From: Cycas panzhihuaensis
Lineage: Eukaryota; Plantae; Cycadophyta
Direction of reading: 5' to 3'
DNA length: 64,000 nt
Assembly (NCBI GenBank): GCA_023213395.1
Contig: CM041465.1
Location: 96,293,741-96,357,740, forward strand
Shown: piece by piece, positions 13,331-58,861 of the stretch
How positions within the stretch are numbered: position 1 is the stretch's first letter
Layout of the letters: every line of letters starts with the position of its first letter
Position numbers and translations under genes: made by a program
The notes under the pieces: generated by a model
Seen by the model: only the letters and a program-made list of their open reading frames with translations
Databases searched by the model: none
Told to the model about the DNA's origin: nothing

Positions 13331-13460
13331 TAAGAAATTGCTGAAAAATCTTTCAGAAAATGAATATAACCAATATTTCTTGCTTGTGAGTAAATCTGCT
13401 TCAAATGGGAATAAATCTTCTTGCTTCTTCAAAAAAAGTTTAACAATGGATCATAAATCT

Positions 13461-13472
13461 GCTCTGATACCA
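13461..13472 (-). promoter_or_regulatory. Primer binding site (initiator tRNA-Met)
   Basis: gctctgatacca is the reverse complement of TGGTATCAGAGC and lies 2 nt from the LTR. Confidence 0.95.
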
Positions 13473-13474
13473 GA

Positions 13475-17923: not shown

Positions 17924-18237
<314 letters not shown>

Positions 18238-27200: not shown

Positions 27201-28649
27201 AGATTAGGTAGATGGAAGATAGGATCATGTTATTATAGTCATAGTACATGAAGAACCTATTGGAGAAGTCTGGAATATAAAATTATAAACTTGTTACAAT
27301 ACCATGTGTAAATGGCCTAAGATTATAAAAGGATATGGCCAAAACCTTTGTAGATGGAATGAAGTATTACTAGTTGGTAGGGAATCTAATTTACTTAACT
27401 CATACAAGACCAAATATTACCTATTCTATTGGATTGGTTTCATGCTATATGCATAATCCTCAAGTGCTTCATTTAGTTATAGCAAAGAAGATTCTGAAAT
27501 ACCTGAAGAAGGCCATTAATCTTAGTCTCGAATATCATCAAGGTGAAGAGATAAGGATACATGGCTACATGGATGTTGATTGGGGAGGAGACTATGATAA
27601 TCAAAAGTCCACTGTTGGATACATATTTGGTATCAGTAATGGATTTATTTCATGGTAGTTGAAGAAGTAACAGACAGTGGTGCTATCTTCTACAGAGGCA
27701 GAATATCAAGGACTTAGTGTTGGTGTGAAGGATATTATATGGTTGCAATGTCTCTTAGAGTTTCTTGGAGTTTCCAACAAACATCCAATTATCTTCATTG
27801 ATAATCAGAGTACCATTCATCTGCCAAAGAATCCAAAGTTTCATGTGCATATGAAGCATATTAAGATTTAGCATCACTACATCTATGAATAGATCAAGTC
27901 AAGGAAGCTACAGGTCAACTATTGTCTAAGTGAATTTTAGCTTATAGATATGTTCACCAAGCTACTTACTAAAGATTAATTCACAAAGATGCATAACAAA
28001 TTAGAAGTTACCGATGTTATCCTTGAGGGAGGATGTATCAACAAGGATAAAAAAGATGTAGGATAGTCCCAGCCTTCATGATAATGTAATTATTACAAGT
28101 TACAGGCTTTCCACATTCACATTAAGGAGGGATATTAACGTAGTAGTTATTTGTTAAGCCATAGGTTAATGTTAATATGGTTTAACTAAGGTGATTAAGT
28201 GAAAAGATATGAGAAATTCAAAGGGTTGTAACCTTAATCAGGTGACACCTTTTAGAAGCATATAAAAGCCTTGAGCCATTATGTATTCAATGCTTTATAT
28301 GAATCAATTATGGAATAATCAATGTGATCTAGAAGGATCTTTTATGGTGGGTTTTTTCCTGAAAGGGTTTTTCTATGTAAATCTTATGTACTGTGCATCT
28401 ATATTCTATGTATATGTTTTGTTTGCTTGTTATATATGGTTAAAGATTTTGTAGATGGGAACATACCTATTTGATTTCATATTCCTGAATACTTTAGAAG
28501 TCTTTTTTCATAATTTTTTTTTTTTCATATATTTTCTCCCATATCTTAGTGATTTTATCTATCTAGCTTTGGTTTTTACTCATCCTATTTTGATTTTTAT
28601 CTATCCCACCTTGATTAGCACTTATTTTATCAATTCTAGAGTCTTCACA
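24261..28649 (+). mobile_element. Degenerate Ty1/Copia gag-pol with probable 3' LTR (28133-28649)
   Basis: gag start MEYIMPKVIFNGNNF, LWHNHLGH, integrase FIDDYTRKAWVYFLK, RT KWVYKIK and YVDD (~27080), RNase H DVDWGGD and SSTEAEY. PPT-like tracts at ~28025 and ~28124. 5' LTR not identified. Confidence 0.88.
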
Positions 28650-31600
28650 GTACCACAAAATAGAACTTTGTAATACTGTGGTAAATATTATACGATGAAT
28701 TTTTTCACTTTAAAGATCTTTTAGCCTATGGTTGATTACACATTCATGGCATCCAATTATAGCCTATCCATTAAATCTAATTAAAACCTATTAGAATTTA
28801 TAAGTATACTTTGATACCATATTAGAAATACAGAGTATAACATAATGGAATTATAATATACATATATAATAACTAAATTATCTCATGAGTTATGTACAAA
28901 TGTAAAGATAAATATAACAAAAATAGAAATATGTATAATAAATATCAAAATCATTCACCATAAAAAAGACAATAGATTTATATATAAAAAATCCAATGTG
29001 GGAAAAACCATGGGAGAAGCTAGATTTGGAACTCCTTTTAATGATCAGAATAAGTACAAGTTATTTCTCAAATTCTTAAGTGGTGTGTATACATATCTAT
29101 ATTAATGTTCATCTCCTAAGTAGTCAACCATGTCCCTTGAGCCTTTATATCATCCAATAGTATATAATCATAGATATGTATACATCTCACATATCTCAAT
29201 ATATATTATTACTAAAATTATATATGTGTTATAACACATTAATATTAAACATTATAGATATGATTAATTCATATATTCTAACATTCCCCTTAATGTTTAA
29301 TATCTTCAAATTTTGCTCTTTAATTCTTTATGTCTTCAAGTATTCATCCATTGGTCTTCAACCTATATGTTGGATCTCGTAGCTTGTATTTGTAATTTAT
29401 ATGTTGTATTAGTGTTATCACTTATAACCTGTAAATCATCCATATACTTGTCTCATATAAGCATTAATATATGTATCTATAATAAATCTCTATTAGCATA
29501 TATATAGTCATTTATGATTATCAATGACCAATTATAAGCATCTAACCTATAAATATAAATCATCAACCATCATCTAATTTATCACTACTATATGAAGTAT
29601 TTTACTGAAATCTTTACTTTTGTACCTACTTTTATCAATATCAACTATCAATGAATCTTTAAATCAAAAAATAAATAAATTGATTTCTGAGTCTATATAA
29701 ATAATAACCATCTACCAAAATATATAGGTAACCAACCTTTATAATCACTAGTTTAATAGGTAATTACTTTAAATATATGGTTCATTATCTTTTAAAATAC
29801 TTGTTACAAGAGTAGCAAAATCTCACCTCTTGAGTACGAGTTAAAAAATTATAATTGAGTGTGTTATATAAGAGTAACTTATGAAACTTATGCTTGCCTT
29901 TTATGAACAAGATTTATTTTTGTACGCTTCTTCATTTACATAGTTCAGTAACTTTTTTAGCATCTATTATCAAACATCATCAATAATTAATCTCAAAACA
30001 TACTAACTCTAAGAACAAACTAAACTACTTGGCCAAGATAACTTAAATGTAGCAAGGTAGCACTAATAATGTGATTATATACCTCTTATCATATATGGAT
30101 AGTCGAGCTTCTCACTAAAAAATATAAATAAACATCATTTTTTAGTTTGATAATCTTACCAACTAAATATTAGCTAGATAACATCAATAACTAATTTAGT
30201 ATGCTAATAATCAATCATATGAGACTTTTCCTTGACTCATTAATAAGTGGAATTTCTCAATCTCCTTATCTCTTTAGGTGATCTATTCATTTGACTAGTG
30301 GAGTTGTAATCACTAAACTAAATATGATTTTACAAGGGGGATTTTCATAACTAGCATATCAATAAATTTTCATATTAATATCTCATCAAATATATCCTAC
30401 TTCATGAATTTTTCAACTAATTTTGAGCCTTGAAATATCCTAAACAAGCTTTTAAATAATTACTTGTAAAGAAAACTTTCTTTTACTTTCTTCATTTGCC
30501 AAAAATAACTTTACCATCATATTTAGAGACTTTTAAAACATCAAAATATACTAAATTTTTTTTTAATTATTTATAAAATGCATCTTTTATAAGGTTTAGT
30601 GTACTTTCATCAAATTTTCCCATTATTTTCTTTATCTTCTACTATCTAAAGTATACCTTGTAACTACTCATTTTGATTATCTCAAAGTTATCTTTCCAAT
30701 GTAACTAATAACACCTAATTCTAATATCTTAGTGAGAAATTATGGTCGAAGAAGTGCCAATGTATCATAAAAAAGTATATAATCCTTTAGAAAATTAATT
30801 TTAAACTTTAAATATCAATTAAATTTAATTAATAAAATTCATAATTATAAAAATATTCTAATTTAATTTAATCAAGTTTGAGATATACCCACTTCACTGA
30901 CTAGTCATTGGTCACATGCACTTATCTATGTGACCTCCCATTGATTAGTTAAGGGGCTTATCAAATTCCAAAAAAAATATCAAATGCAATTAAATTTTTA
31001 AAATCAAATACAATTTTTGTTTATGATTTCTAAATATTTTTGTTTAAAACCTCCTACAAAATTATGTCTCTAATCTTTGTTTGATTCTATATTATAAATT
31101 TTCTTCCTCTAATGAATGATCAAAATACAAAGTCTTTTCTTCAATGAGTATTGTGTGAATTATTTGATCTCCATTAAGGGTGCTACATGAGATCTTTTTC
31201 AATCTATATTTGTTACAAATCATGTTTCTTATGGCTATTTATCTTTTTTATGGGTTGCTTAAGGTTTTTATTTAAGTGATCATCTTTGGTATTGTCTCCT
31301 CTGCATAGGCAATGATGGCAATAGCTCGATTGCTATATCATAGTGTGAGATTTGTTTGGAGATAATTCTATTTATTGATGGAGGTTCTTATGATTGATGA
31401 CTATGTGGCTTACCCTCCATGAAAATTAGACACTATGGTATGCTTTCTTTGTGGCCATGGCTTTGGTATTTAGGCACTTTCATCTATTTTCTATGGACTC
31501 CACATACTTTGTGGTATAACATTGTTATTATAATGAATTTATTTACTATAATATTTTCTTCTATATAGGGGCAGTTGGTAGCACCATGAATGACATCCTT

Positions 31601-34600
31601 CTTCTCATTAGTATATTAATCTAACTACTACTTATATGGTTATGCTCTTCATATATTATTTTCTATATCTAGTAGCATGTAGGGTATGATCATATGGGTT
31701 TAATACTTCCAGAGTCAATTAGGATTTTTCCATTGTATGTACATAGAGCAGATGTATGGAGGTCAAACTACATCATGCATAGTGTAGGGTAAATACATAT
31801 ACAATTAATGATTAGGATGATTCTCTATATATTGCATACTCTATCTATTTGTTTGGTATGATTTGCATTCTTCACTATAATAATTATGGCCATAATTTTT
31901 GGATTTAATAATTTTTTAAACCTTCACTTCTACTTTAGAATGCCTATCAAACTAATGTCACAAAATAAATAACATTTTTCCATAACTATGCCCCCACATA
32001 TATCATAGTGATTTCTCATATCTTTAATATTTCACATAATTCAATCTTCAAATCATGTCTATATTATTGTTTAACATACCTTCTTACTATCACTTATTAT
32101 TTATTTTTGCTGCTTAAATATCACCATGCCTTGAAGTTACATACCTTTATCAATCATGTCATATCTTACCATATACCTTTTTGCTACCCATTTTATATTA
32201 ACTAATGGAATTACTAGCTTGAATATCTTTCTTAATTATTTTACTTGATATCCTTTTATTAATTTAATTACATCATGCACATCTCTTTATAGGCTACAAA
32301 AATACCTTTAACTGGAAGAAAATCTATAAGCAAGGTGGACAAAAAATTCCTTAAACAAAAGCTAGGTAAAGAGATATGCCATTACAACTTATCTCTTTTA
32401 AAGCTAATTGTGAGAGTTGGTAAGGTGTCCAATCCCACAAAATCTTGGTCATTTCTATAGGTAGATGACCTATATCTATGAACTCAATTGGCCATAGTTT
32501 ACTCTCATCTTCATCATTTAATTATCTCACTTTAAACACTTATATATCCTAGTATATGTGCATATATCATGCATAATAAATATCCCCATAGATATAAATT
32601 AATATGCCATTAGTTTGCTATATATCTAATATGTATTTTGTCTATTTCCTATTTGTAGCTTTCTCATCTTATGTATGTTAGCTTATTATTCAACTTCTTT
32701 TGGTCCCTAGATCATAGTCATATATTGCCAATATTATTGGTATGTTTAGATTTTTAGCTCATCAAAATCACCTTATAACTAGCTCTTATATTAGCCCTAT
32801 TTCTAGCTCATCAATCTAATGGAATTAGGGGATAAAGGGAATAGAATAAGAATGCAGAAAGAAGTAAACCATTAATCCTATAAGAGTGGTGGTGTTGATG
32901 AACACCAAGGTCTTCAAACCACATGAATAAATAAACGAGACTTAAGTAGGATATAATACACTACTCAAAGTCCTCTATTGACCAGCATTGACAAATGCCT
33001 AATATGTTACTACCAAGATCTAATATAGTGTAGTTATATTACAACTGAGATCTAACATAGTACTACCATAATATCTCTACAAATATAAGTTATTACCCCA
33101 ATATAGGTAATCAACCTAAGGTGGATACAAGCCTTAATATAAGTATTATTCTAATATTTCTCCCTCATAATACCCATTTGGGGAGACTCTTAGTTTATCT
33201 TTGAATTTAATAAACTTTATCTTTCTAAGTGCCTTTGTGAATATATCTGCCACATGTTCTTATGTGCTACAATAAACTAATTCTAGCTTGCCTTATTATA
33301 CCAACTCTCTGATGAAGTGATATAGTGTTTCAATGTGATTTATGCTGCCTTGAAACACTAGATTTTGAGTCATCTAAATTGTGCTTTAATTCTTATAAAT
33401 CAACTTAGTGGGACTAACTTATTCTTCCTGTAAATCCTGAAGTAACCTTTTAGACAAACTATTTCATGTACTTCTACTACAATTGCTTTATACTCTACTT
33501 CTATAGTAGACATAAGTACTATGGCCTGTTTCTTTAAACTCCATGCTACTACAATTGAACCCAAACTCAATGTATAACTAGAGGTAGATTTCTTATCATC
33601 TACACAACCTACCCAGTCTAAGTCTATATACCCTACTAATATATAGTCCTATGATAACCTGTAATGTAATCTATATCTAATGGTACCTTTGAGATATCTA
33701 ATAATTCTCTTAGCTACTTACTAATGTTTTATCTCAAATTCATACATGAATCTAGAAATTACATTAATTGCATATGTGATATCTAGTTGAGATAAAGTTA
33801 AGTAAATTAGAGTCTTAATCAATTGCCTATAAAGTGTAAGATTAACTAATTTTAATTCTTCAAACTTAGGTAATTTCAATCTAACTTATACTAGAGTTGC
33901 AAGTGTCTTGTAACTATTCATGTTAATCTTACATAATAGGTCTAATGTATATTTTCTTTAGGAGATAAGTATCCATTTTTTATTTTACCAAACTTTAATA
34001 CCTAAGAAGTAATGCATTAGTTCCAAGTTTATCATCTCAAATTCCTTACATATATCTTTTTTAAATCTTTGGTATAAGTGATCACTATATCTAGTATATA
34101 CCTAGTCATCAACATAGAAACCCATAATTAGTATGGAGCTTTCTTCTAATTTGATGTATAAGTTAGGCTCTAATTAACTTCTTTAGAATCCTCTATCCTT
34201 AAAATATTTGTTAATCATAAAGTACCATGCTCTAGGTACTTGCTTAAGTCCATATAAGGTCTTTTTAACTTTGTAGACCTTATTTTTTTCTCCCTTCACT
34301 TGAAACCCTTTGGGTTATTTGACATATATTTCTTCATCCATATAGTCATTTAAGAATGAACTTTTTACATCCATTTGATGTATTGTCCAACCTTATTATG
34401 CAACTAAGGCCATAATTAATTTAACTATTTCTAGCCTTGCAACTAGTACAAATGTCTCATTGTAATCTATGCCCTCACTTTAAGTATAGTCCTTTGCAAC
34501 TAACCTTGTCTTATACTTGTTAATAGACCCATTTAATTTATACTTGGTCTTATAGACCCATTTAGTCCTAATGGGATTTTTTCTAGGTGGTAGATCTACT

Positions 34601-37600
34601 AACTCCCATGTGTAATTTTTCACTAAGGCAATGTGCTCTTCCTTCATTACTTTCTTCCATTCATCTTGATTATTTTCCTCTTCAAAGTTATGAGGCTTAT
34701 TAGACTCCATAACCTGAGTCATAAGTGCAAAATTCACCCTTTGAGACCTTGTAATCCTTCTCTCAAAGTTGGTGTCTAAAATATTTAAAGGGTTATGAGC
34801 CCTTTGTACCCATTTTGGGACCCTTTGATTTGAAGAAGAGGGTCCTACTTTATTTATATTAGGTACATTTATCCTCTTAGAGTTTGAGTATATTTCAACC
34901 ATGATATTTTTCCCTTTATCTTTTTCAATGACTTCTTCTTAATAAGACACATCTTCTTTAAAGATGACATCCCTATTTATAACAATCTTTTTTCCTTTTG
35001 GATCATAAAGTTATAGGATCTAAAAGAGTCACAATATCTTATAAAGATGCATTTCACACTTTTTTCATCTAGTTTTATCTCCCTTTGATTTGGGACATGT
35101 GCATAAGTTATCCATCCAAAAATGCTTAAGTGTTTGATACTTGGCTTATAACCTATCCAAGCTTCTTCTCGTGTAACCCACCTAATTGCTTTAGTGGTAT
35201 ACTTGTTTAACATATATACAACTATATATACAGATTTAGCCCAATAGTCATTTCCTAGATGCTTGTCCTTAAGCATATTTTTAGCTATTTCAATAACTAT
35301 TCTATTCTTCCTTTTAGTAGCCCTATTTTATTATGGAATATAAGGATTTGTAAGTTATTTTTATATGTCACAATACTTGTAATAAGTTTTAAATTTATTT
35401 AAAATAAATTCTCCCCTATTATCTGATCTTAGGGTCAAAATTCTAACTCCACTTTACCTTTCCACCATAGTTTTGAAGTCCATGAAAAACTATAGAGCAT
35501 CTTATTTTAATTTGAGGAAGCAAACCCATGTTATCCTTATGAAGTCATTAATAAATATTATAAAAACCTTAGTACCTCTAAGTGAAGGAACATCCATTAG
35601 ACCATATAAGTTTGGGTATATCAATTAAAGGAGCATATTAGCTCTATAACTTTCATAAAGAAATCCTTCCCTTTATTGCTTTCCAAGCACATATCCTTCA
35701 TATAGTTCATTGCTATGAACAATAGTTGGTAGTCTAATTAGCATGTCTATTTTCTTCATTAAGGCCAAACTATTTTAATTCACATGGCCAAGTCTTTTAT
35801 GCCATGTTTCACTATCCACATTTATTGATACCTTTAAGGCATAATAGTCTATTGGAAGTATGACTAGTTTGAATAATTTATCACCAATTATTTATCCTTT
35901 CACCATAATTACTTTGTTCCTTAGTTTATCTTTATTGGTGCATTCCTTATTATCAAAGATTACTTTGTATCTTTGTTGCATCATCTGATCTACTAAAAGT
36001 AAATTCTTGTTAAGGGTTGGAACATATAACACATCATTTATATACTTAGTTTCTCTAAAATTAATTTATATAGAGACATTACCTTTTCTAATAACCACTT
36101 AAGTAGTGTTATCACCAAATATGATCTTACTTTTCTTAGTGTTATCCAATTCTTTAAACCACTCTTCCTTATTAGTCATGTATGGAACACCCTAAATCTA
36201 TGTACCAATTGTCTTCTTCCTCACTATCCATTAAACTTGAAAGAAATAATCTTTCATCTTGTCTTTTCTCAATAATTGTTTTAGTAGTTCTCCTTTATGA
36301 ACTTAACCCTTTTACAAAGTAATTTTCCTTTAAGTGTCTTTTCTATAGAAATAATAATATTAGATTGTCCCTTTACCCCTTAGGCTTCTACATCCTTGTC
36401 CTTGGTTTCTCCCCCTAGGACTTTGACCTCCTCCTCCTCCTTGAAGTCCATAATTTTAACCTTGACCTTGGCCTTAAAAATACCTTTGACCTTGGAACTA
36501 ATTTTACTCTTGATAGAATTGACTTGGGCCTTGTCCCTGATAATTACCTTGACCTTAATGATATCCTTGTAGATGATAGTCTTAATTTTACCTTTAAAAT
36601 TAATTTTTAAGTTTACCTCTACCTCTAGGAGATTATCCTTTACCTCTAAAAATTTATCCTCAATATGTAAGTCTAATTTTTGTCTTAGTGGCAAAAACAT
36701 GCTCAAGAAACTCGCTCCCTCCCTTTTTCTCTTCTATAACTAGAGCATGGCACTTGACTAATCTATATTAAGGGTACTAAGGTCCTTAGAGACCTTAATT
36801 CTAGTGACCATCATCTCAAATCCCTTGATGTCGCTTACACATTTTAAGATTTTCTTAACTACTATTTACTTACTAATAATCTCTCCTAAGGCCCTCATTT
36901 GCTTAACTAGGCATTGGATGTTTATAATAAAATCATTAACTCCTTCATTAGTATTCATCCTTAGGTTTTTAAATTTACTTCTTAATGTATGAAACTTTGA
37001 TATTGTTACTCCTTCATATGTAATCTTAAGTATGTCCTATACTTCCTTTAATGTCACTGCTTCATTGACCCTTGGGAATATATGATCCTCCAAAGTATAA
37101 AAGATGAATGCAAGTGCCTTATTGTCTATCCTTTTATCCTCCTTGAGGCTTTTCTTTTCTTTCTCTATGGTGTTTTCAGTAAGTGCTCCATAACCTATTT
37201 CAATAAACTCATATGTATCATTGGCAATAAAAATTAGTTGCATACATCTACTCTAATTGAGAAATTTAGTGCTATTAAACTTGTGCACCATAACATTACC
37301 AATATTTAATGCCATAATTAAAAAATTACCTTAGAAAATAATTGTTTAAAAAATAAAGTACTTGTAAGAAAGTGTTAATAAAACACTAAAAAATAAATAA
37401 AAAGGCACTCAAAGGTAATCAAGATTTATCCTACTTCAACTTCAAAAATTAGACAAATGTCCCAATTGGTATTCAACCACCTTCAAAGCAAACTTGTATA
37501 TTAATAAGAGCTTACAAACTAAAATTTTGCTAGTTTATATAAGGGACATCATGTAGGAAACTTAAAACTAGTGTCAATTTTGATCATTAAAAAGTTACAT

Positions 37601-38106
37601 TAAATTATTTTAAAAAATTTTAAAGTTATATCCACTCAATAGAGGACAAAAAAAGAATCCAATGCTTTAAACAAGACTTAATTATGACATAAGGTGGCCA
37701 GGATATACATTAAAATGTTCAAGGAAAAATTAGCTTTCTACCATATAAGGATCAAAGAAATTTTATATCAAATTGAACCACTAAAAAATACATCAAATGG
37801 AAATCAAATATAGTCATGTGACCACTCATTTCATTTGGGTGGAAATATACTTCATCTTGAAGCTAACATAACTAAAATCTAACTTTGTTGGTGACAATTA
37901 TAGCTATTAAAGCAAAAATAGATATTGATTTTGAAATAGCTTCTTTGAAAATTGTGTTAGCCCCTTTTAAAAAATAAATTCTTGGTCACTTGAATGTTGT
38001 TATATGACCTACAGGTTATCATCAAAACATGGTCACACTGCTAGGATGTCAGATAAAGAAATTACTTGTAAGACTCCAGATATACTTGATAGAGCTCTAA
38101 GAATAA

Positions 38107-38109
<3 letters not shown>

Positions 38110-38154
<45 letters not shown>
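38110..38154. repeat. (TG)n microsatellite
   Basis: Seen directly. Confidence 0.98.
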
Positions 38155-38157
<3 letters not shown>

Positions 38158-38614
38158 TTTCTATATATATGAAAGAGGCTATGTCAATAATTTGAGAAGC
38201 AGGCTAAGTAGGACTGTACAAGAATAAAGTATAGGCTTAAAAAGGTGGATGCAAGCTCTAGGTTAGTTTGTTATGTAGCCTATAGTGACCAAGGAGAAAT
38301 TTGAAAATATGAGTCCCATTCTAATACAAAAGACGTTAACTAAGAGCAAGTTAGGAGTAGGTGCATCACATGAATGTTACTCTAAGGAATTTATATAAGA
38401 GCAATTATGTATTTATTATTGCATAAACTTAGACAGCTCATAAGTCATGAGTCATTTCCATCTAGAAAATGGTATGCAATCATAAGTACATAAAGGCTTA
38501 TAGAGATCTAACCCAAAAATCTATGACTCTATGCTCATTAGAAGGTGCAAGGATGTAGAGCAACCACTAGTGGAGAAAGAGAGATGCATTATGGATATAC
38601 CTTGTTAATAGATT

Positions 38615-38885
38615 ATGGCAATTCCAAAGATCAAGACAAGAACATATAATCATGTCCTCAATGAGCTTCACTCATATAAAGAAGAAAATTATGGAAGTGG
38701 AACAGGAAGTTGTAAAGACTTCAGATAAAAAAGAGAAAGGTGTTAATCCTTATGACCTTTAACAACAAGAGAATGTGTTGGCAGAATCAAAGATTATGCT
38801 TCCTACTTATTGTAAACACCTTAAGGCTATTATTGGTAACCAACAAGGAATATTGGTAGAGATTGAGTAATCTAGATAGGAAGAA
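38615..38885 (+). pseudogene. TFCA: Captured near full-length copy of tubulin folding cofactor A (TBCA/KIESEL)
   Basis: Translates MAIPKIKTRTYNHVLNELHSYKEE / EVEQEVVKTSDK / KEKGVNPYDL*QQENVLAESKIMLPTYCKHLKAIIGNQQGILVEIE. Recalled plant TFCA: LKIKTSTCKRIVKELHSYEKEVEREAAKTADMKDKGADPYDLKQQENVLGESRMMIPDCHKRLE. Confidence 0.88.
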
Positions 38886-39860
38886 TAAAGAACTATTTGT
38901 CATTGGTATGGATTATAGAGAGAGAGGATTAGAAACAGGAGTGATAGTGAAAGTAACAACTAGTACTCCTCAATAATATAGAACTTAGTCATTGGATAAT
39001 AATACCTTAAACCTATAACTTGAATAGAGATGTTATGTAATATGCTTTCAAAAATATTATAAATGCAGAATGCTAGATCAACCAACATAAGTATAATAGA
39101 TATTGGCAATAGATGCTAATAAGCAAATAGTAATAGTAAACAGAATCACATAAATATACTAGTAGTACAACAAACTCCTTTATAACTTTGACTGAGATTC
39201 CTCAATAGCTTATCTAACTTGACTCTAAATGATAGCTTTTACAAATAGGGAAGATGGATTTAATACCAGATGATGGAATTAAGGGTTAAAGGGAATAAAA
39301 TGAGAATGCAAAAATGAGTAAACCATCAATTCCATAAGAGTGGTGATGTTAATAAACACTCGAGTCTTCAAATCCTATGAATAAATAAGCAAGACTTGAG
39401 TAGGATATAGCACACCACTCAAAGTCCACCACCGATTGGCATTGACAAATACTAGATATATTGCCACCAAGATCTAATATAGTGTGGCTATAGTATGACT
39501 AAGATCTAATATAGTACTATCAAAATATCTCTGCCAATGTGGGTGATCAACCCAAGGCAGATACAAGCCCCAATATGGGCATTATTCTAACATAATCAAC
39601 TCTATAAGCTTGTCCCTACTTTACAAAATCTCTTTATTAATCATGGCTCTAATACCATATTAGAATTTATAATTAGACTTTGATGCCAAATTAGAAATAT
39701 GAAGTATAACATAATGAAATTATAATATATAGATATAATGACTAAATTATATCATGAGTTATATGCATATTTAAAGATAAATATAATAAAAATAGAAATA
39801 TACACAATAAACATCATGAGCATTCACCACAATAGAGACAAAAATTTTATACATACATAC

Positions 39861-39900
<40 letters not shown>

Positions 39901-41286
39901 ATGTGTGTATACACACACACACATACACACACATATATATATAACTCAATGTGGAAAAAATTGTGGGAGAAGGTAGAGTTAAAACTTATTTTAATAATCA
40001 AAATGAATACATCTCCTTTCTCAAGTTCTCAAGTGGTGTGTATATATATTTATATCAATGTTTACCTCATAAGTAGTCGATCATATCTCTTAATCCTTTA
40101 TATCATCTAATAGTGTATAATCATAGATATGAATGGATTTTACATATCTCAATATATGTAATTAGTGGGATTATATATGTGTTACATCTCATCAACATTA
40201 AACATTACATATGTAATTAATCCACATATTCCAACTAAACAATGGGTTGTCCATCAGTTTTGAATCAAACCATGGACTAATTAATGCTTTAGTATTAATT
40301 GATATTGAAATAATAGGCAATTTATCCATGGTTTTGGCCCATGATTTTATAGTAAATTATGGGACTAAAAGCATGGGCCTTACCCCTCCCTTTTTCTATT
40401 TAAACCCCTCTTATTTGATCAAATAGATGGCCAAATTTTATAATGTTATACTACTAGAACACTGTTAAAAAATCTATAGACTTCTAGTTGTATTCATAAC
40501 TTACTTGTTAACTTCCACCTTTAACTTAGAGATTACAGATAAGTAGTTGTCAAAGACCTCTTTTATTAGAGCTACATGTTACTAGCATCCCTTCTTCACT
40601 AAGAATTAGGGTAATACCCTTTATACTATTGTAATTTCCCTCTTCCAATTACTTTTTATTTTTCTTTTAAATTTTTAAATTATTTTATGCTTCCCTCTTG
40701 TTTGGTTTCTAGTGCATCCTTTACATGTTTCACTTCTCTATTATGTAAATGTTTTATAGAAGAACAAAGACTTAGTATTATCTATTGATTAAAAAGTAGT
40801 GGGAATACTAGTAATTGTAAGGCTCTTTTTATACCAACTTCTTAATTAGTTTTAGATTACTATTTTCTTTTAGTTTATAACATCTTTTATTTGTTAACTT
40901 TTAAGATTATATTACATATTACTAATGTGGTAGGTGGAGGAGTGATCTATCATGTTATCGTGTAGGTCAGAGGCTTTTGAAATAAAGTTGAAGACCCTTT
41001 TTTTCCCTTACTTCTCCTACTAATAGAAAGTGGTTATTGTATAACCAAAGTGCTACCAAAATTTCACTAATTTCATAAAAAATGTATGACCTAAAAGGTG
41101 TGCTTTAAATTCATTTTCATGTAATTTAAGTAATCTTTAAAATATTTTTCCATTATAACTCAACTTAGCAAGTAGAAATACTACCAGATTTTTTCTAGAA
41201 ATTTGTGAATTATTATATGTAACTAACTTGGTTTTGAGTTTATTAGTAATGTGGTTTCATAAGGTTTTGCATGCTCAAAAAGGGAA

Positions 41287-44200
41287 TGTTTTATCCTAAG
41301 GGTATCTTAAGGGTAATGTCTTAATTTATCTTTATATAACTCTTGATGTAACTTAGACACTTGTCTGACACGTCATTTATACATGTATCAGTTACATTTA
41401 CTCATATATATTTAAGGAGACTATCTCCCTCATAATAAATGAATCAAGTCATTCTCATATATCTGAGCCTAAAGTTTAACATAGTATTAGAGCAGGTCGA
41501 TCTATTTGCCTGAGAGAGAAACCATCAGATATCATGTATCATTTTAAAGAAATACTAAGAGGTTAAAATGACTATTTAAGAAGAAGGAAACTAAAATTAC
41601 TAGAAGATCAAGAAGATTATAGAAATCAATTTTATACGGGCATGTATGGACCTGTACGGATGGAGAAATCTAAGAGTACTTAGAATTTATTAAAACTTGT
41701 TTAATACATAGATCTCAATATGGATATCACTTTTATCAACTGACAAGAAGACATTTGAGATCGTTTTGAGGTAGTTTTTGACCATTTACTAGTCTGCGCA
41801 GGTTTTAGTACTCAATCATAGATTTTGATTAGAATCTTGTACTAATCTAAGTACAATCACTTATAAACTCTATGTTTTAGTGATACAATTCCTTTGAATC
41901 CTCTTTTGAAGAGATTAATTAAATAAACAAAAGTTTGATGTAATTTTTTGAAAAACCCTAACCACCCATCTAGAGGTTTCAAGCTAATTTTCTCATAAAC
42001 TAGAAGTCATCTCTAGAAAATAATCTCAAAGCTGGAACCCTTGTGAAAATTATTGTACTAGTTTGTACACTTTTATTTTTGTACTAAAATCCATACAATT
42101 ACATGACTAAATTTAGATTTCTTTGCTATTACTATTAGAAAATGGCTTCCTTAATCTTAGCCCTAATTAATCTGGACAAACTGATAGATACTAATTATCA
42201 CATATGAAAAATTAAGGTAGAGACTTTGTTAAGGGAAAAAAATGCATGGACAATATCCATTAGTACTTAAACAAAACCAACTATAATCGAGTCTACTCTA
42301 ACTAGTTAGGAAGAAAGAGATAACATAAGGGTAATAGTTTTAAAGCTCTCTATTTTTAATCCTCTACTTATCTATATTGAAAAATCAAATTCATCATCTA
42401 CAATCTAGAGCATATTTGTGAATATATATAGTCAAAAAAATAAGGTTAGGATCATAGCACTCAAAGAAGAATTGTTCAAATTACACATGAAGGAAACTAA
42501 CACTGTATCAAAGTTCATACACAAAGTCATCTCAACTAGAAATAATCTTCTGAGTGTAGAAGCAAGTATTATATCATAAGAAGTTGTAGAAATGATAACA
42601 AGTAAGCTCCCAAAATTGTTTGATGTCACAGTAAATACAATAACCAATAATAATCAAATTGACACAATGTCTCATGATGGTCTAATTAGGTTATTATTAA
42701 GACAAGAGCTAAGGAATAAATTATATGAAGACATAGCATAATAAAAGAATACTTTGTGATAAAACTAAATATAGGACCTAGAGGCTAAGGTCAATTTTAT
42801 AGACATGGATGAACTCTAGAATTCATAAGTCCATCCTAAGGAAGGTGGAAAGAAAGTAGAGGATGAAGATACTTAAATCCTCTAAGAGATGCAAGGGTCT
42901 GTTTTAACTATGGGAAGCCTAGTCACTTCTCTAGTAACCACAGGGCATTTGATGTATATTATCATTGTGGGCAACTTAGGCACTACCCCTATCAGTGCAC
43001 ATAAATGAGAATTAAAATCCATAGAGGAAAATAATATATTAGAAACTATAGTAAGGAGCAAATAGATTAGGATAAAGAGGAGACAACCTTCATTGTTACT
43101 CTTACCACTAGCCTAGAAGATGAAGGCATCCAACACATAGACTCTAGAGCCTTACAACAGATGATAGGTTAGGAAAACTAGTTTTGAGTCACTTGAACCT
43201 TATTCCTCCAACAAATCTATTGAACTAGGGTATAAGTTTCCTCTAAATATTAAAGGAATCAAGACCATAGCTATTAAATTAAAGGGCAATATGTAAAAAT
43301 TTAGAAATGTGCTTTTTGTACCAAGTTTAAAAAGGAACCTCCTCTCTATCTCTCAGCTTAGAAAGAAAATAACGAGGACTATATTTGATAAATAAGGGTG
43401 CTACTATATCTTAGATATGAAGAATGATAGTGCTATGATTAATAAAGGGATAGAGAATAATGATCTATACATGTTACTTTCTAATCCTATAATTCCAAAA
43501 AAGGATGTAAAGCCATAAATTGCTATAAATTCTAACATCAATAATAAATTGTGGTATTTGAAATATGGGCACATCTCCTTAGACATTTTAGAAATGATGC
43601 ATAAAATAGGAATGGTTGATGGACTTCCTAAAATTATATCTAATCATTTTATTTGCAAAAGCTATCAACTTAGAAAATAGCACTATTTTTTTTTTAATGA
43701 ATAGCAAGCTCAAAATAAACTAGAATTAATATATATAGACCTATGTGGACCTCTTACTTCTCATTCAATCAATGTCTCTAGATATTTTTTAATGTTCATT
43801 GATGATTTTTCTAAGAAAGTCTAGGTTTATTTTCTCTACAATAAATCTAAGGTCTTTGAAGTATTTAAAGAATTTAAAGCTAAAGTCAAGTTGGAATTAG
43901 GGTCAAAAACCAAAAGTATCAGATTAGATGCTAGAGGAGAATGTATTTCAAAGGAATTCTTGAATTTCTACAAAACATGTGAAATACATAAATAATTTAT
44001 GACTCCCTACACATCTTAATCCAATGGGGTAGCTAAATAAAAAAGTAGAACTATTATGGAGATAGCTCACTGCATGATTTATAATAGATAAGTTTCAAAT
44101 TTTTACTAGGTAGAAATAGTAAGTACAGTCTACTACTTAATAAATTAAAGTCCAACAAAAATCTTGGAATAAGTTACTCCAAAAAAAGCCTAGACAAAAT

Positions 44201-47200
44201 AAAAACTAGATGTAAGTAACTTAAAAATATTTAGATGTTTAGTTTTTGTTTATATACTAAACAAAAGGAGATCCAAACTTGACTCTAAAATTATAGATTA
44301 TATTATGATAGGCTATAGTAAAAACTTAAAAGCCTACAAATGTATAGATTTAAAAGCTAATAAGATCTATATAAGTGAAGATGTCAATTTTAATACAGGA
44401 TATGTCACTGGAAGCCATTTTCCACCTCAAGTAATTGAAGAAGCCCCAAAAGGGATATTGTAAGAAGAACCTCCAGTAGAAGAAACCTCTAGAATAACAT
44501 AAGAGGATATAGGATGAGATGATATAGAAGAGTTAAAAACAACATCTCTACCTCATGAAAGCTTTGCCTATAAAGGAGAAGAATTATCCCCTGAGGAATC
44601 AGTCATAAAAGAAAAGAAGAAGGAAAAGAGAGTACCAAAATAGTACATTAAAACTATTGAAGAAGGAAAGGGAGATGTATTTACAGATAAGACAAGAAAA
44701 TAGAAGCATCAAGCATTGTTTAGTAATATAGAACCACAGTCCTTTAAAGAAACAAAAGAACATGCAGAATGATAAGTAGCAATGGATGCTAAAATGGAAT
44801 CAATCACCAGAAATCAAAGTTAGGAGTTGATCAATTTACCTAATGATAAGTTTGTGGTTAATTACAAGTGGATATATAAAATGAAGGAAAATACTAATGG
44901 CAGGATAGAAAATCATAAGGCCATACTTGTAGCATAGGGTTACACCCAAATAATAGGGATAAACTTTAATGAAACATTCTCACCTGTTATTAAACTTGAC
45001 ACTATAAGAATAGTAATTACTTTAGTAGCTCAAAATAACTAGAAAATTTATCAATTGGATGTAAAAAGTGCTTTCTTGAATGGTGAACTAGAAGAAGAAG
45101 TCTATATGAGACAACCAAAAGGCTATATTAAAAAAGGTTAAGAAAATATTATATGTGAGCCAAAGAAGGCACTATGTGGATTAAAGTAAGCTCCAAGAGC
45201 TTGGTATGCTAAATTGGACAAATTTCTCTCACAAAATGGTTTTCTCTTATGTAATTTAGATTCTAGTTTATATATAAAAAAAAGAAATATGCTAATCACA
45301 ATAAATTGGGTCTATATAGATGGTATGATTCTCATAGGGAGTGATATAGAATCAATATCAAGTATAAAAAGTCAACTAGAAAAGAGCTTTAATATAATAT
45401 ATTTGGGAATTCTAAGTTACTACCTGGGAATAGAAGTCAATCAAAACAAGGAATTAATTACATTATCACAAAGTAAATTAGTGACATACTCGACAACTAA
45501 AAATAGAACTTGGTTGATAAATGCCAGGTTTGGTGTTGTGGCAAGACTTGACAAAAACCTCTTGGAAGAGGTTAGTATTGAAACTGAGGGGTGGAACATT
45601 GACCAAAAGTTGGTTTACAAGTTGGACAGCTTTAGGTGCTCTAGATGTAGGTGCTTGGGGCATCTTCCTTTGAAGTGCCAAGGAGAAAATAGGGATGGGG
45701 CTAGCAAGAAAAGAGGCTCAAGCAAATTTGTTGAGGATCTAGAGGTAGAAGTAAGCATGGGTGATACTTTAGGGACTAAGGTAATTGAATCTCCTCAGAT
45801 AAATCAACACATGGAGACATATATCCTAGTGGAGGCTAAGGAAAAGGAGTAACCTACGGGTCAGAAGGAGGGACAACAAGGGCCAGTGGTTATGGAAGAG
45901 GAATGCCTTAATGGTGAAGAGAGGAGGACTGAGGAGGCCCCAGTTGAGGTAGCTGAGATTAGTTACAATGAGAAGATGAAGGGGATAAATTGGGATGAGG
46001 AGGACCTTCTCTCAAACGAAGGTGAGGAGGGGGTTCTGCTCACAAGTTAGGTGGAATTACAACAAGGGGAAGAGGAACATTAGGCTAGGGTTGAATGTAG
46101 GGTTAAGGGGGGGCTAGATATGAGAGGGGAGCCAGAAAGGCCACCTAGTGGGGATCACAAGTGGATAGCGAGAAGAGCACCTGATTTAGGCAGTAATAGA
46201 AAGGTTGGCAGACCATCTAAGAAAGTGATTTAAGAAAGGGAAATGGTTTTCCAAATTGACCAAGGGTATTAGTGTACCCTAAAGGAAAGGGTAATTAACG
46301 GCTTGTTTCTCATGAGTAGAAGATAATTCTTTAGGGTAGGCATAAGGGGCTTGGCCATGAGGATATTATCATGGAATGTTAGGGGCCTAAACGCCCCCTC
46401 TAAACAGAGAATTATCAAGGACTTGAGATTTAGAATGGGGGCGGATATTATGATGTTGTGGTAAACAAAACTTAAGAACGCTAAAGAAGCAGAGGTGAAA
46501 AATAAGATTTGGAGGAATGGCGAGATGCTAGCAAAAGAGGGTTCTCTTGGATCGGGTGGCATGGAGGTTCTCTATGACCCTAGATTTAGCAAGGGATAGG
46601 TATGGTTCGGAAGATCATTTTATAACCGTATACCTTACCTGCAGGAGAATAAATATCCAATGGCTTACCACCAATATTTATGCTATGATAACAACAGAAG
46701 GAAAAAAGACTTTATGGGATAAGATTGTGGTTGCCCACAAAGATTGGAAAGGCCCCTGGTTAGTTGTGAGGGACCTAAATATAGCCCTATTTCCAGGTGA
46801 AAAGAGGGGGTCAAGAGGACTAGTCCAGGAGCATGTCAGACCTAAGGGTTTTCCTTTAGAAAGGTGGGTTATTGGACGTCCCACTCAAAGGGGCTAGGTA
46901 CATGTGGTCAAATAGGAGATTAGGGGACAATCACATCTAGATAAAGTTGGATAGGGTGTTAATAAATTATGAATGGATGAGACTCCATAAAGACATCAAA
47001 TTAGAAGCGCTTCTGAAAGTGGCCTCTGATCATTCACCTCTAATGTTAGAATTCAATACTTTAAGTATTCATCGTGGGGCCCCCTTTCGGTTCGAGCTTA
47101 TGTGGTTAAGGCATCCAGATCTTAGGGACAAGGTTAAGGAATGGTAGGGTATCCCAATAAAAGGGCATGCTATATTTAGGTTCTTAAAAAAGCTGAACTC

Positions 47201-50200
47201 AGTTAATAGATAGATTAAAGTTTGGAACAAAGAAGTCTTTGAAAACATTTTTTAGGCCAAAGGTAGAATTCTTAAGGAGCTTAACATGGTAGAGGGTAGG
47301 ATCCAAGAGGAAGGAAGGTCCTCCATTCTAGACGAGATGGAGAGATCGACTACAAAGAACCTGGAAGACGTGTTGGCCAAAGAGGAAATACACTGGAAAC
47401 AGAAATCTAGAGCTCTCTAGCTATCAGAGGAGATAAAAACATTGAGTTCTTCCGTATGTCTACTTTGAAACATAAGTCTTGTAATAGAATAAATATTCTA
47501 TGAAGCACAAATAGAGTAAATCATGTGAAGGAAGAAGAAATCAAGGACATAGCTATGGAATACTTCAAGAATTTATTTGAAGAGCCCAAATGCTAGGAGA
47601 TAAAATTAAGGAAGAAGCTCATGAGTCATATTCCAAAGCTGATTAATGATGATCAAAATAGGAGGCTAACGGATCATTTTACACTGGAGGAAGTGGAGAA
47701 GACTCTTTTCAATATGGGTCAGGATAAAGCTCTTGGTCCAAATGGTTTCCCACTAGGTTTCTTCCAAGAATTTTGGGACATAATCAACGAGGATCTATAA
47801 CTAGCTCTAGATGAATTCTTTGATAAGAAAAAAATTATAAAGGAGTGGCAGGCTACTTTTTTGGTGCTAATCCCAAAGAAAGAAGGAGCGAAAGTCATGG
47901 AGGACTTTAGACTAATAAGTCATTGCAATGTAAAATATAAAATCCTAGCAAAAGTTCTAGCAAATAGGTTAAAGGAATGCTTGTTACTTATCATATCTCA
48001 AAATCAGGATAAATTTGTGAAAGGCAGAGAAATTTTGGATGGGATAATAGTGGTCCATGAGATGGTTCATTCAGTCTATCATAGGAAGGAAGCTAGCATG
48101 TTGGTAAAAACTGACATATCCAAAGGTTACGATCAAGTGGCCTGGGATTATTTGATTGAATGCCTCTAAGATTTTGGCTTTGATGAGGCTTGGAGGGAAT
48201 GGATGTGGTGTTGTATATTTAGGCCCTCCTTCTCTATCTTGATAAATGGTACTTTGAATTCTTTCTTCCCTTATTTTAGAGGATTAAAGCAAGGGGATCC
48301 CTTATACCCCTACTTATTTATCATTATAGTGAAAATATTAGGGAGGGTTGTTGAGGAGGCCAGAAGGAAAGGGTAGACAGTTGGACTAAAACCCTCATCT
48401 GGCATTGATAATATTATTCATCATTAGTTTGTTGATGATAATATCTTTCTAGGTAAGGCGGCCCTAAGGGAAGCTAGAGCTTTTAAGGTGGGGCTCCAGG
48501 CTTACGAGAGGCCTACAAATTAGAGAATCAACCTAGGGTAGAGCTCTATTTTCTTTCTTAATACCCCTGAGAGACTACAAAGGGGGATTAATAGGGAGAT
48601 GGAGATCCCTATTAGGCCTCTTCCAACCAGTTACCTGGGGATGTCTCTATTTATAGGAAACATGAGTAAGGACCTTTGGAATTCAATGGTGGATAGGATC
48701 CAAAGGAAGTTGGTTGGGTGGAAAGGTTCGCTTCTTAGTCAGGTAGGCAAAATCTAGCTAGTGGCAACCTCTCTGTAGAGCATTATAGTTTATATAATGT
48801 CTATCTTTAAGATACTGAGTAAGATCATTTCAATCTTAGAAGGCATTCAGAAAATATTTCTCTAGTTTGGCATAGAGGATAAGGAAAATGGTTTCCTAGG
48901 ACAAAGTTTGTAGGCTCAGATGGGTAGGAGGGCTCAATATTAGAAGATTAGGAATGTTTGATAGGGCTCTAGTGACTAAACTTGGGTGGAGACTGGAAAA
49001 AGATGATGGTACCTAGTGGGAAAATATTATAGACAAAAAGTACCTAGGGGGTAGGCACTTTTTGAAGGATGAGGTGGGGGAAGTTTCAGGATCCTCTATT
49101 TGTAAGGGGTTGGTCCACATGATACCTATTTTAAGAAATGTATGAGATGGAATCTAGGGAACAGGGAAAGAATCAAGTTTTGGGAGGATAAATGGTGTGG
49201 AAACTACAAAGTGAAAGACAGGCCATCCATCGGTAATCTATAGGGCATTTGTGAAGGTACTTTCAGCATGATGGTCAAGGACTACTAGGAGGTCCAAGGA
49301 AAAGATAGATTTTAGAGATCCTTTGAGGAGTTGCAAGGGACCCAGGAGGGGGGGGGAAGTATTCAAATCCTTAAGAGTGAGTTGATTCATCAGTATATTC
49401 CCAAAAGGCTTATGGTTGAAACAATTATTTAGCCTCACTCTTCCTTTGGTATGTACTTCGTGAAGGAGGGTTATCAAATTATTTGTATAGATGAGGGGTT
49501 TGGCAAGAACCCACTATTGGCTAGGGTATGGAAGTTGGGGCTTATTCCTAAGGTGGGGGTCTTTTGGTGGCTCTGTTTATAGAATAAGATATTAACAATT
49601 GATAATCTTCATAAACAAGGCTTAGCCACGCCAAATAGATGTGTGTTGTTCAAGAGTGATGAGGAGTCACTGGACCATATTAGTATTCACTATACCTTCT
49701 CTAGGGGTGTTTGGTCATTTCTCTAGTCTAACCTTGGGCTGGACTAGGTGATGCCTAGGACACTGCTAGACCAATGGATGTTATGGAAATCTCCCTTTAG
49801 GATCAAGACATTGGGACTATTATGGAAACTAATTTTGCCCATAGCAGTCTAGAATATTTGGAAGGAATGTAATAGAAGAATTTTCTAAGGGAGGGAGATG
49901 GACAAACTAAGGCTCTATGAGATGATTCATATGGTGACAGTGGAAATGCTCAAATCCTTAGATGAGAAAATGGTCCTAAAAGGGGAGGAAGGAATCATGG
50001 ATGGTTGAGGGATTAGAAGACCTAAGATCATTGGGGTAAAAAGAAGAAAGTATTCTTGGCAGGTGCCTAATGAGAACTGGGTCGAAGTAAATTTTGATAG
50101 GGCATCAAAAGGCAACCCAGGTGAGGTTGGGGGGAAGGCCTTTATAGAAACCTAAACAGTACGGTAAGATGGGCCTTTGCAAAATATTATGGCCAATAGT

Positions 50201-51737
50201 CAAACCATAGTGCTAAACTAAAGGCTATGCAGAGAGCTGTAGCTATGGATGATGAGGATGATAGTGATAAGGTAATAATAGAAGGTGATTCTCTGAATGT
50301 GATCAGGATCCTCAAGGGGGAGACAGAGGCTAATTAGTATAATGTGGACATGGTGAGGGATGCTTAAGATGTTTTAAGATCCAAACAAAGTTCTTAGATT
50401 TGGCATACGTATAGGGAGGGTAATGCATCTGCAAACTGGCTTGCCAATTAGGCAGTTCATAATAAGAGAATGATGGTTTAGAAAGGGAATTTCCTAGAGG
50501 AGCTTCTAAGTCTGGTCAAAATGGATATGTTAGCCCAGAGTGGGGTGAGCTAGCTATCAAGCCTATTTTGGTGCTTTGTATCAATGTGGGGGTTGAGTTA
50601 TGCTAGGCCATGGGCATGTCATGGCCATTCTATTCCATAGCCGAAGGGCTACTATTGTAAAAGGTTTGGGGACTTATCAAAACCCCTTCTAATTTTTTTA
50701 CCAAATAAAAAAAAAATAAAGTAAATATATTAAACATTTGCTAACAAGATTTCAAATGGAAGATTGCAATAACTGTGTAACTCCCATGGAAGTTAATTGT
50801 GACCTAGTTCCAAGTAAAGGAGAAATTGAAGTAGATGTAACTTTATATAGATAATTGATTGGAAGTCCAATTTATGTCATTATAACTAAACCTGACATCT
50901 CATAATAATTAGACCTAACATCTTATACTCTATAGGTCTAGTTTTAAGATACATGCAACAACCCAAGATAAGACATTAGAAGGCATCTAAGAGGATACTC
51001 TAATATTTAAAAGGAATAATTAATATAAAACTTGTCTATTGAAAAATGAAATTAGACAAGTTAATTGGGTTTTGTGTCTTAAATTGGGTTAAGGATAAAG
51101 AAAAGACGAGATCCACAAGTGGACATTGCTTCTTCCTAGGGCCAGCAACTATCTCCTATAGTAGCAAAAGATACCCAACAATTACACTTTCATCCACTCA
51201 AGTTGAATGCAAGTCAGTTGTTAGTGTTACTTATGAAGTAGTTTGGTTGAGGCAACTACTACTTAATCTGAATCAATAGCAATAAGGACCAATAACTTTA
51301 TTTTGTTCTAATGAAAGTGCCATAAAATTAACCAAAAATTATGTACTCCATGCATGAATAAAACACATCAAGGTGCATCATTTTTTTCATATGAGAGAAA
51401 GTGCAGAATAAAGAAGTTAACTTTGTATATTATCCTATAAATGAACATGCTGTAGATTTCTTAATAAAATTGCTCAACATAGATAGATTTCATATTCTTA
51501 GAGATAAAATAGGATTAAAAGGATAAAATATTAAGAGATAGTGTTAAGATATATTGATTTATCCTAAGGGTATCTTGAGTGTAATGTCTTAACCCCTCTT
51601 TATGTAACTTAGACATTTGTCTAACACATGTCATATGTACATGTATCGGTTACATTTACTCATATAAGTTTAAGGAGACTCTTCCTCATAATAAACAAAT
51701 TAAATCATTCTCATCTATCTGAGTTTGAAGTTTAATA
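41287..51737 (+). mobile_element. Degenerate Ty1/Copia element split by a LINE
   Basis: LTRs at 41287-41481 and 51542-51737; decayed PBS tagtattagagc (41482-41493). gag from 42142, integrase DLCGP and [20 protein letters not shown] resumes at ~50718 (SKYIKHLLTRFQMEDC) and RNase H at ~51050-51500. Confidence 0.92.
45479..50717 (+). mobile_element. 5'-truncated L1-type LINE with RNase H domain
   Basis: ORF1 zinc knuckle CSRCRCLGHLPLKC. ORF2 starts at 46357 MRILSWNVRGLN, with endonuclease SDHSP, RT LIPKK, QGDP and FVDD, zf-RVT, and RNase H VNFDRASKGNPG. A-rich tail ~50703-50716; TSD aaagtaaat (45470-45478 and 50718-50726). Confidence 0.95.
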
Positions 51738-58400: not shown

Positions 58401-58861
58401 CCCAAAGAGAGAAGTAAGATAAATAATAAGCACTAAAGAGAACCAAAAGAGAAAATTGATCACTAAAGATAATCAAAGTTCTTTCTCTTAAGATATATGA
58501 ACCATGAATGAATTACAATAAAGACTAAAGAGGGTATATATAGTGCTTTGACTACTAAGGCTTACTTCTCACTAGTGCATATGGGACAAAAGCTTACACC
58601 TCTATTTTAAGCATTTACTAAATAAGTGAGAATTACAAAAGCATAACTACTTATTAAATACATATGCAATATAAAAGTACAACTACTTGCTAACTATATG
58701 TATAATACAAAAGCACCATTATTTGAGTACTTGTTAAATAAGTGAGCATGATTATTTAGGCACTTCCTAATTAAGTACTACAAAACATTCATGAGATCAC
58801 ATAATCCTTTGGCAGATATGCAAATACTTCCTTCCACTTATGGAGATGGAGCTATATTACA
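52446..58861 (-). mobile_element. Full-length degenerate Ty3/Gypsy element
   Basis: LTRs at 52446-52943 and 58387-58861, TSD cccac/cctac, perfect Met PBS ~58373-58384, PPT ~52945-52956. RT IFFDDI (~55191-55207), integrase MDFITSLP...DRDPKFTRSFW, gag ATG ~57479. Confidence 0.94.
57640..58360 (-). mobile_element. Possible short 3' LINE fragment in the Gypsy leader
   Basis: Minus-strand tail cttttacttatc followed by A-rich sequence occurs twice (57641-57725). A faint RNase H-like HGNPKVAG lies upstream. Confidence 0.4.

Follow-up and report, generated by a model that had tools for sequence, protein, structure and literature searches.

A truncated antisense tubulin-folding cofactor A pseudogene in the leader of an old Copia retrotransposon, probably derived from a single capture

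The window, i.e. the whole stretch of 64,000 nucleotides that was analysed, contains an old, broken Copia retrotransposon on the minus strand (32817-39592), which carries in its leader a copy of the gene for tubulin-folding cofactor A (TFCA, or KIESEL). The copy is a pseudogene fragment and cannot encode a TFCA protein. With moderate confidence it can be considered the result of one old TFCA capture, after which the insert was copied along passively within a sub-lineage that forms a minority of the Copia family.

The Copia element and its surroundings

The features of the element, from left to right, are as follows.

32812..32816: left copy of the TSD, one mismatch to 39593-39597
32817..33156, minus strand: 3' LTR, whose terminal dinucleotides have decayed
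33157..33166, minus strand: polypurine tract (PPT), read from the sequence
33182..37315, minus strand: decayed Copia gag-pol (Pfam Retrotran_gag_2, Pol_BBD, SH3_retrovirus and RVT_2; six-frame translation; tblastx)
37316..38252, minus strand: gag-proximal leader, including a (TG)n run at 38110-38154
38253..39003: foreign segment that most family members lack, with a firm right and an uncertain left boundary
38490..38614, plus strand: upstream flank common to paralogous copies (contig pieces 2, 10, 18, 26, 28 and 29)
38615..38884, plus strand: processed TFCA pseudogene fragment, codons 1 to ~90 of 112
38768..38769, plus strand: predicted exon-exon junction after the KQQ codons, an intron site in the loci of other plants
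38855..38856, plus strand: second predicted exon-exon junction, with GT at the same place in the loci of other plants
38885..39003: non-TFCA flank common to paralogous copies (pieces 3, 7, 8, 12 and 22), without poly(A)
39004..39256, minus strand: leader of the multi-copy family proximal to the primer-binding site (PBS), from contig coverage, with a sharp break at 39004
39257..39268, minus strand: decayed PBS, 3 mismatches
39271..39592, minus strand: 5' LTR of the Copia, from the comparison of the LTR pair
39593..39597: right copy of the TSD, one mismatch to 32812-32816

The element has the parts of a Ty1/Copia retrotransposon: two LTRs, a TSD, a PBS and a PPT, with the termini and the PBS decayed, and a gag-pol in which gag, the protease region, the integrase region, RT (RVT_2) and the RNase H region follow one another in the order typical of the group. 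The gag-pol is of full length from its start ATG at 37315, and is interrupted by many stops and frameshifts. Its integrase core and RNase H, which have no Pfam match of their own, were recognized by translation and by tblastx against two other Copias of the window. The LTRs, of ~340 and 322 bp, are 80.4-80.5% identical (K2P 0.24), as computed with the right end of the 3' LTR placed at 33161 and 33152, and the TSD is 5 bp long with one mismatch between its copies. The PBS-like site, which we take to be of the initiator-Met type, is with its 3 mismatches at chance level when considered alone, but it lies 2 nt from the LTR end. The earlier note on this DNA had described a minus-strand Copia with its gag ATG at 37315, and the gag, Pol_BBD, SH3 and RVT_2 matches, together with the LTR pair, the PBS-like site and the TSD, bear this description out.

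No Pfam match was obtained for the leader at 37316-38103 and 38160-38617 read through stops, and a search of the leader for a second host fragment gave 0 Pfam matches in 18 frames. A nested solo LTR or a tandem duplication within 37330-38100 was considered and either rejected or found weak, 28, 10 and 6 of 200 shuffles scoring as high. The gag-proximal leader contains a 41-nt direct similarity (37381-37421 and 37776-37816, 78%), and a weak self-inverted stretch of 99 bp (61%) is located at 38400-38498, just upstream of the start of paralogous cover.

The window has a G+C content of 31.5% and is composed of nested decayed retroelements. The TFCA-bearing Copia lies within an outer LTR element (28782-40235, minus strand), 48 bp past the PBS of the latter (39646-39657). 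The LTRs of the outer element are ~80-84% identical in two blocks, with a microsatellite in the right one, and its 3.5 kb interior gave no Pfam match in six frames read through stops. On the right there follow a plus-strand Copia (41287-51735, LTR pieces 80% identical), with a LINE-like RT remnant inside (47.8-49.6 kb) and no host fragment in its leader, and a decayed Gypsy-type element with LTRs (52471-58859, minus strand). The left part of the window holds a decayed Copia with no detected LTR pair (24246-28012, plus strand), a Gypsy-type remnant truncated at the start of the window (1-3300, minus strand), a 41-bp tandem repeat at 4690-4853 and a long (TA)n-rich array at 17826-18300. No tRNA gene was found in the window.

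The TFCA fragment and its spliced origin

The homology to TFCA, placed by the earlier note at this position and on the plus strand, was confirmed by three kinds of matches. When read through its stops with X, the stretch 38664-38930 matches the Pfam family PF02970 (TBCA) with an E value of 6.8e-7 and 30.0 bits against a cut-off of 30.3; plant TFCA of known structure (PDB 3mxz) matches the piece with an E value of 2.1e-14; and all 120 of the 120 listed TFCA homologues match the window, and do so only at 38627-38867. In 106 of 107 homologues, 40-48 of the 81 compared residues are identical to the piece, with gymnosperm and other TFCA proteins not separated (48 and 47 of 81, respectively). The best DNA match, which weakly favours a gymnosperm host, is to a spliced locus, L008, with 70% identity over 264 nt; the protein of L008 shares 99% identity with an entry labelled Picea.

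The description of the piece as a nearly complete reading frame did not hold. Compared with L008 the frame has a 9-nt deletion at 38620 and a frameshifting insertion of 10 extra nt within 38678-38692; it contains stops at 38760, 38868 and 38877, the first of which is common to orthologues while that at 38868 is not, and its homology to TFCA ends at ~38884, i.e. at codon 90 of 112. Such a combination of a frameshift, three stops and a truncation is that of the disabled frame of a processed pseudogene. Beyond 38884 the next 66 nt agree with the rest of the TFCA CDS at 16 of 66 positions, and the mRNA tail aligns with this sequence at a level that 107 of 300 shuffles also reach. Neither the C-terminus nor the 3' UTR nor the poly(A) of TFCA was found in the piece. 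The lack of a poly(A) tail, which the earlier note had pointed out, was upheld, there being no run of 5 A within 38860-39049. As regards a TSD belonging to the insert, likewise not evident to that note, the best candidate, of 10 nt and with one mismatch, does not rise above the background of AT-rich DNA, as judged with an uncertain left edge and in sequence that is ~20% decayed. It is also worth mentioning that a scan for stop-free ORFs missed the TFCA piece, and such a scan is therefore insensitive to decayed fragments. A homologue search with the X-read pseudogene returned no candidate, and a profile search with its 34-aa stop-free piece returned 3 matches, of which the one inspected was a repetitive non-TFCA protein.

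The spliced origin of the piece is supported by a comparison with 26 plant TFCA loci, collected by a motif scan of metagenome contigs, several of which are redundant and several of which read as angiosperm. In each of the 20 intron-bearing loci the splice donor lies right after the KQQ codons, and the other 6 loci are spliced there. A GT is present 87 nt past the KQQ site in 17 of the 20 (in one it is shifted by a deletion, in two it was not located). The window aligns with spliced L008 along a single ungapped diagonal that passes through both junctions, with identities of 56/75, 60/87 and 19/29 in the three successive parts; for the short last part, the other 1237 offsets average 7.6 identities, with 17 as the best. 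Since both intron positions, as known from the loci of other plants, are crossed without an intron, the piece appears to be derived from mRNA and to have lost the introns of its parent gene; the absence of intron-length sequence reported in the earlier note is thus confirmed at the KQQ junction and at the second one. An 828-nt contig, X19, which is RNA by guess, was considered as a transcript of the Copia element and rejected: it matches 38693-38822 with 21 differences in 130 nt, lacks the 10-nt insertion and continues as TFCA on both sides, so its TFCA-like sequence comes from the parent gene or a paralogue. Among the RNA data listed, none was given as containing 38170-39840, from which nothing follows on expression.

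Edges of the foreign block

While the right edge of the block is firm, its left edge is uncertain, and may be placed either at 38253, where a 10-nt match to the family leader was found by eye, or at ~38490, where paralogous cover begins. For that 10-mer 0.05 matches per 64 kb are expected, a value to be read with the fact that the 10-mer was chosen afterwards. The upstream flank at 38490-38614 may represent the TFCA 5' UTR or the end of intron 1; its comparison with the 5' UTR of L008 gave no match (171 of 300 shuffles score as high). The downstream flank contains an imperfect repeat (38889-38907 and 38980-38997).

Distribution of the insert among related copies

The presence of the insert in other copies was examined in the contigs of four DNA runs from three related organisms (X1-X4), approximately half of each run being covered, and copy abundance was judged by contig counts and not by contig depth. 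The contigs cover the LTR and the PBS-proximal leader many times; in that leader 17-36 contigs per run differ from the window at 39101-39141, and 48-76 at 39222, while 1-8 differing contigs per run are found at the TFCA positions. In 9, 9, 9 and 13 contigs of X1-X4, respectively, the match to the window ends exactly at 39004 with a common loose end, and a further 2-5 contigs break off at 39006-39016. Because so many contigs leave the window sequence at 39004, as do most family members, the TFCA insert is not a feature of the whole family. That the locus is old, and not produced by the assembly, follows from orthologous contigs of 97% identity, which span 38380-39063 in X1 and X2, and from pieces of 96-98% identity covering the TFCA part in X3 and X4.

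Apart from the orthologues, at least five pieces (5 of 32 among the pieces listed, ~83-88% identical) run 33-58 nt across 38884, and these pieces, 3, 7, 8, 12 and 22, continue into the same flank. The 9-nt deletion at 38620, which is present in 0 of 117 TFCA homologues, is common to the window, to pieces 2, 18 and 28, which represent one paralogue in three organisms, and to piece 29, all of which cross it without a gap. The 10-nt insertion is present also in piece 30 (86% identical), and is absent from pieces 3 and 19 and from the X19 contig. The indels of the TFCA copies form a nested pattern of descent. The copies are linked by a common end of the TFCA homology, by the flank beyond it and by the 9-nt and 10-nt indels, and they descend from a single damaged copy rather than from several rounds of copying of the mRNA.

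Several observations bear on whether the secondary copies, which have the truncation point and indels in common, lie in sister elements. One X1 contig ties such a copy to the family: it matches the window up to 38926 and again, in the family leader, from 39026, its shorter match being 41 letters long and the letters between the two matches not being known. The TFCA-bearing paralogues differ from the window by 12-19%, and the insert-free family leaders by 14-18%. For five joints to 38971-38975 the short side comprises only 22-26 letters, and the imperfect repeat of the flank may have produced them. Among the pieces listed, none spans an LTR and the insert, and no TSD of a paralogue was seen. 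The earlier note had asked whether other members of the family share the insert; the common truncation at 38884 and the common flank make it likely that a few do, while the break at 39004 shows that the family as a whole does not. A TBCA match is present, neither a poly(A) tail nor a TSD is found, and the junction is common to other copies, which is the opposite of what that note had named as grounds for giving up its reading.

Two other genomic TFCA copies have internal deletions, one from 38677 to 38833 and the other from 38684 to 38828. Further contigs match only 38845-38940, one set of them at high depth in X4; these may represent a more amplified, further deleted derivative.

Age and decay

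The TFCA fragment differs from the X19 contig at 21 of 130 positions, against 0.097 per LTR branch of the Copia (P 0.015); when calculated per ancestral G/C site the values are 0.26 and 0.20 (P 0.14-0.18). The direction of this comparison would fit a capture that may be older than the insertion of this Copia. At 16 of the 21 listed differences the window has A/T where the contig has G/C, and the reverse transition does not occur. The differences between the Copia LTRs comprise 53 transitions and 10 transversions. Within 33160-39592 the 4.2 kb of gag-pol contain 3 CpG and the TFCA fragment 0, a near-total loss that agrees with long methylation-driven decay.

Origin of the insert

The reading that we favour comprises four steps. 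A reverse transcriptase, of an LTR element or a LINE, would have copied a spliced TFCA mRNA. The copy, already fused to non-TFCA flanks, with ~120 nt of unrelated sequence at the 3' break of the TFCA fragment, would then have entered the leader as an inverted block of 0.5-0.75 kb, either at the DNA level (by break repair or cDNA recombination) or through antisense read-through RNA; these routes are proposed since simple template switching to the mRNA would produce an insert in sense. The leader would have tolerated the block, with gag-pol whole, and a handful of daughter copies would have arisen, in which the TFCA part gained its indels. Finally, all the copies would have decayed by G/C to A/T change. 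At most, the fragment would once have put antisense TFCA sequence into the RNA of the element. Against this reading it counts that the link to the family leader is provided by a single contig, that 38380-38475 is covered by orthologous contigs only, and that in several paralogues hundreds of letters to the left of 38561 or 38494 remain unaligned, which leaves room for a context other than that in the window.

The last two points would be expected if another vehicle, such as a different transposon, a LINE 3' transduction or a segmental duplication, had multiplied the block, one copy of which landed in, or was repaired into, the already inserted Copia. Paralogous cover is indeed confined to ~38490-39000, internal deletions accompany the long unaligned left flanks, the antisense orientation suits insertion at the DNA level, and the composition-corrected age test allows an age equal to that of the insertion. 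Such a vehicle is nevertheless rather unlikely: a paralogous contig does reach the family leader, the divergence of the paralogues equals that of the family leaders, a search around the TFCA block revealed neither terminal repeats nor a TSD nor a second LTR pair, and a loose end of an X4 contig at 38848 resembles, by eye, the window at 38272-38297, which would extend the shared flank leftwards.

A single-step template switch within the particle, of the type known from the maize element Bs1, onto an antisense RNA or a cDNA strand, with the insert kept for a function in the family, seems quite improbable. Some features of LTR-mediated retroposition, as described in the consulted part of Tan et al. 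2016 (PMC5131818), are present, namely a partial mRNA without poly(A) or TSD, internal to an element with both its LTRs, and what may be secondary copies; moreover, if the family leader resumes at 38252, ~15 nt (by eye) were replaced and not duplicated. The orientation, with TFCA on the plus and gag-pol on the minus strand, is opposite to the one given as usual in the available text of Vicient and Casacuberta 2020 (PMC7264820), the mRNA part is set off from the leader at either end by sequence that is not TFCA, and a retained function is at odds with most family members being devoid of the insert and with the bearing copies gathering frameshifts and deletions.

A one-off LINE-made retrocopy into a single resident Copia, with the other TFCA-like contigs as independent retrocopies, is highly improbable and, judged from the sequences, largely refuted, since independent copies would not have the truncation point, the flank and both indels in common, and since LINE products start from the 3' end, which is missing here together with poly(A), with no TSD above background, even though LINE insertion allows either orientation, a LINE-like RT remnant (RVT_1 and zf-RVT) lies elsewhere in the window, and poly(A) and TSD may decay or be absent, as stated in the part of Zhu et al. 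2016 (PMC4838847) that was available.

The 7-14 kb element and the antisense orientation

According to the earlier note, the TFCA insert was an independent capture of a host mRNA at the same leader position and in the same orientation as in an element at 7-14 kb of the window. The latter is a gag-only LTR element (7054-13864, minus strand) with LTRs 91% identical, a perfect PBS at 13461-13472 and no pol found. Its 5.3 kb leader carries two plus-strand, i.e. antisense, host fragments, DUF7899 (10662-10889, E 6.7e-31) and Nramp (11308-11397, E 6.7e-5), and no minus-strand ones were found in it; the element represents a multi-gene capture, more recent than that of TFCA. Shortly before the DUF7899 piece there is a stop-free, protein-like plus-strand frame of 117 aa (10220-10570), which has no Pfam or Atlas match and is possibly a third captured fragment. 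The same leader contains a tandem array at 12331-13181.

Because there is no similarity between their LTRs, and their gag sequences are only 41.5% identical over 53 aa, the TFCA Copia and the 7-14 kb element belong to different families. No similarity between the two leaders was detected by blastn, and the remaining resemblance is at the level of composition (1 of 50 shuffles scored higher, with a scattered alignment). The independence of the capture and its mRNA origin stand, but not the near-intact state of the copy. As regards position, both inserts are antisense and lie in the interval between PBS and gag, but their positions are only loosely alike: the distance to the PBS is 0.37 kb in a 1.9 kb leader for TFCA and ~2.1-2.8 kb in a 5.3 kb leader for the 7-14 kb element.

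A host fragment detectable with Pfam is present in two of the five LTR-bounded elements examined, in both cases antisense and between PBS and gag, and was not detected in the other three; the scan through stops was confined to these five elements and so excludes the 24-28 kb Copia and the 1-3 kb remnant. With random orientation the chance of two antisense cases is 1 in 4, and they do not establish a rule. It seems improbable that Copia-type elements of this lineage have a preference for antisense when they take fragments of host mRNAs into their leader, be it that a mechanism distinct from the sense switch is at work or that the translation of gag-pol is blocked by inserts in sense; the two fragment-bearing elements of the window would fit such a preference. 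If it existed, RNA complementary to the mRNAs of housekeeping genes (TFCA in one case, DUF7899 and Nramp in the other) would have been made by these sub-lineages, and small RNAs directed at the donor genes could readily arise from it.

Comparison with known captures

The TFCA insert is an ordinary gene-fragment capture in a large plant genome, and its antisense orientation, the sole unusual trait, is somewhat unusual. No report of a TFCA capture, no census of orientation and no paper on the structure of the KIS gene were found among the papers listed in the literature searches, and antisense capture may still be reported somewhere; in the available part of PMC3726574 the words orientation, antisense and strand do not occur. 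The case can serve as a worked example, in which the spliced origin, the sharp family junction and the nested indels trace the way from capture to copying. Should antisense capture into leaders prove to be a genome-wide bias, it would matter, as the template-switch model predicts sense inserts; antisense inserts also bear on the silencing of donor genes.

Plant TFCA (PF02970, PDB 3mxz) represents the donor gene, which the piece no longer resembles in coding ability. Among known systems, the retrocopies made by LINE-1-like elements in dicots are, in the part of PMC4838847 consulted, likewise intron-less gene copies; the TFCA piece differs from them in having no poly(A) and no TSD above background, in its missing 3' end and in its amplification after formation. 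The conserved antisense ORFs of Grande, RIRE2 and Retand, as presented in the consulted section of PMC7264820, are situated between pol and the 3' LTR; they are intact ORFs without a host homologue, present in most copies, whereas the TFCA insert lies in the leader, is broken, occurs in a minority of copies and is host-derived, and so falls outside that class. The same section describes transduced sequences as usually sense and as present in one or few copies per family, and the TFCA insert is similarly of low copy within its family.

In the consulted part of PMC5131818, the LTR-mediated template switch is said to yield sense inserts. Bs1 and the other LTR-mediated retrocopies of maize described there resemble the TFCA case in having partial spliced host sequence inside an LTR element, without poly(A), and in low numbers, Bs1 having one to five copies with common switch points. 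In the Bs1 type, however, the insert replaces part of the ORFs and is mostly sense, while the TFCA Copia has a full-length gag-pol and an antisense insert in its leader. The captures closest in setting are those of gymnosperms, for which the available text of Bao et al. 2026 (PMC13477047) gives ~400,000 captured gene fragments per genome, with Ty1/Copia examples and a preference for first exons. As in the TFCA case, these are exonic fragments of host genes inside LTR elements; that text, in which 'antisense' has 0 occurrences, gives neither the orientation of the fragments nor their position in the element, both of which are given here for TFCA.
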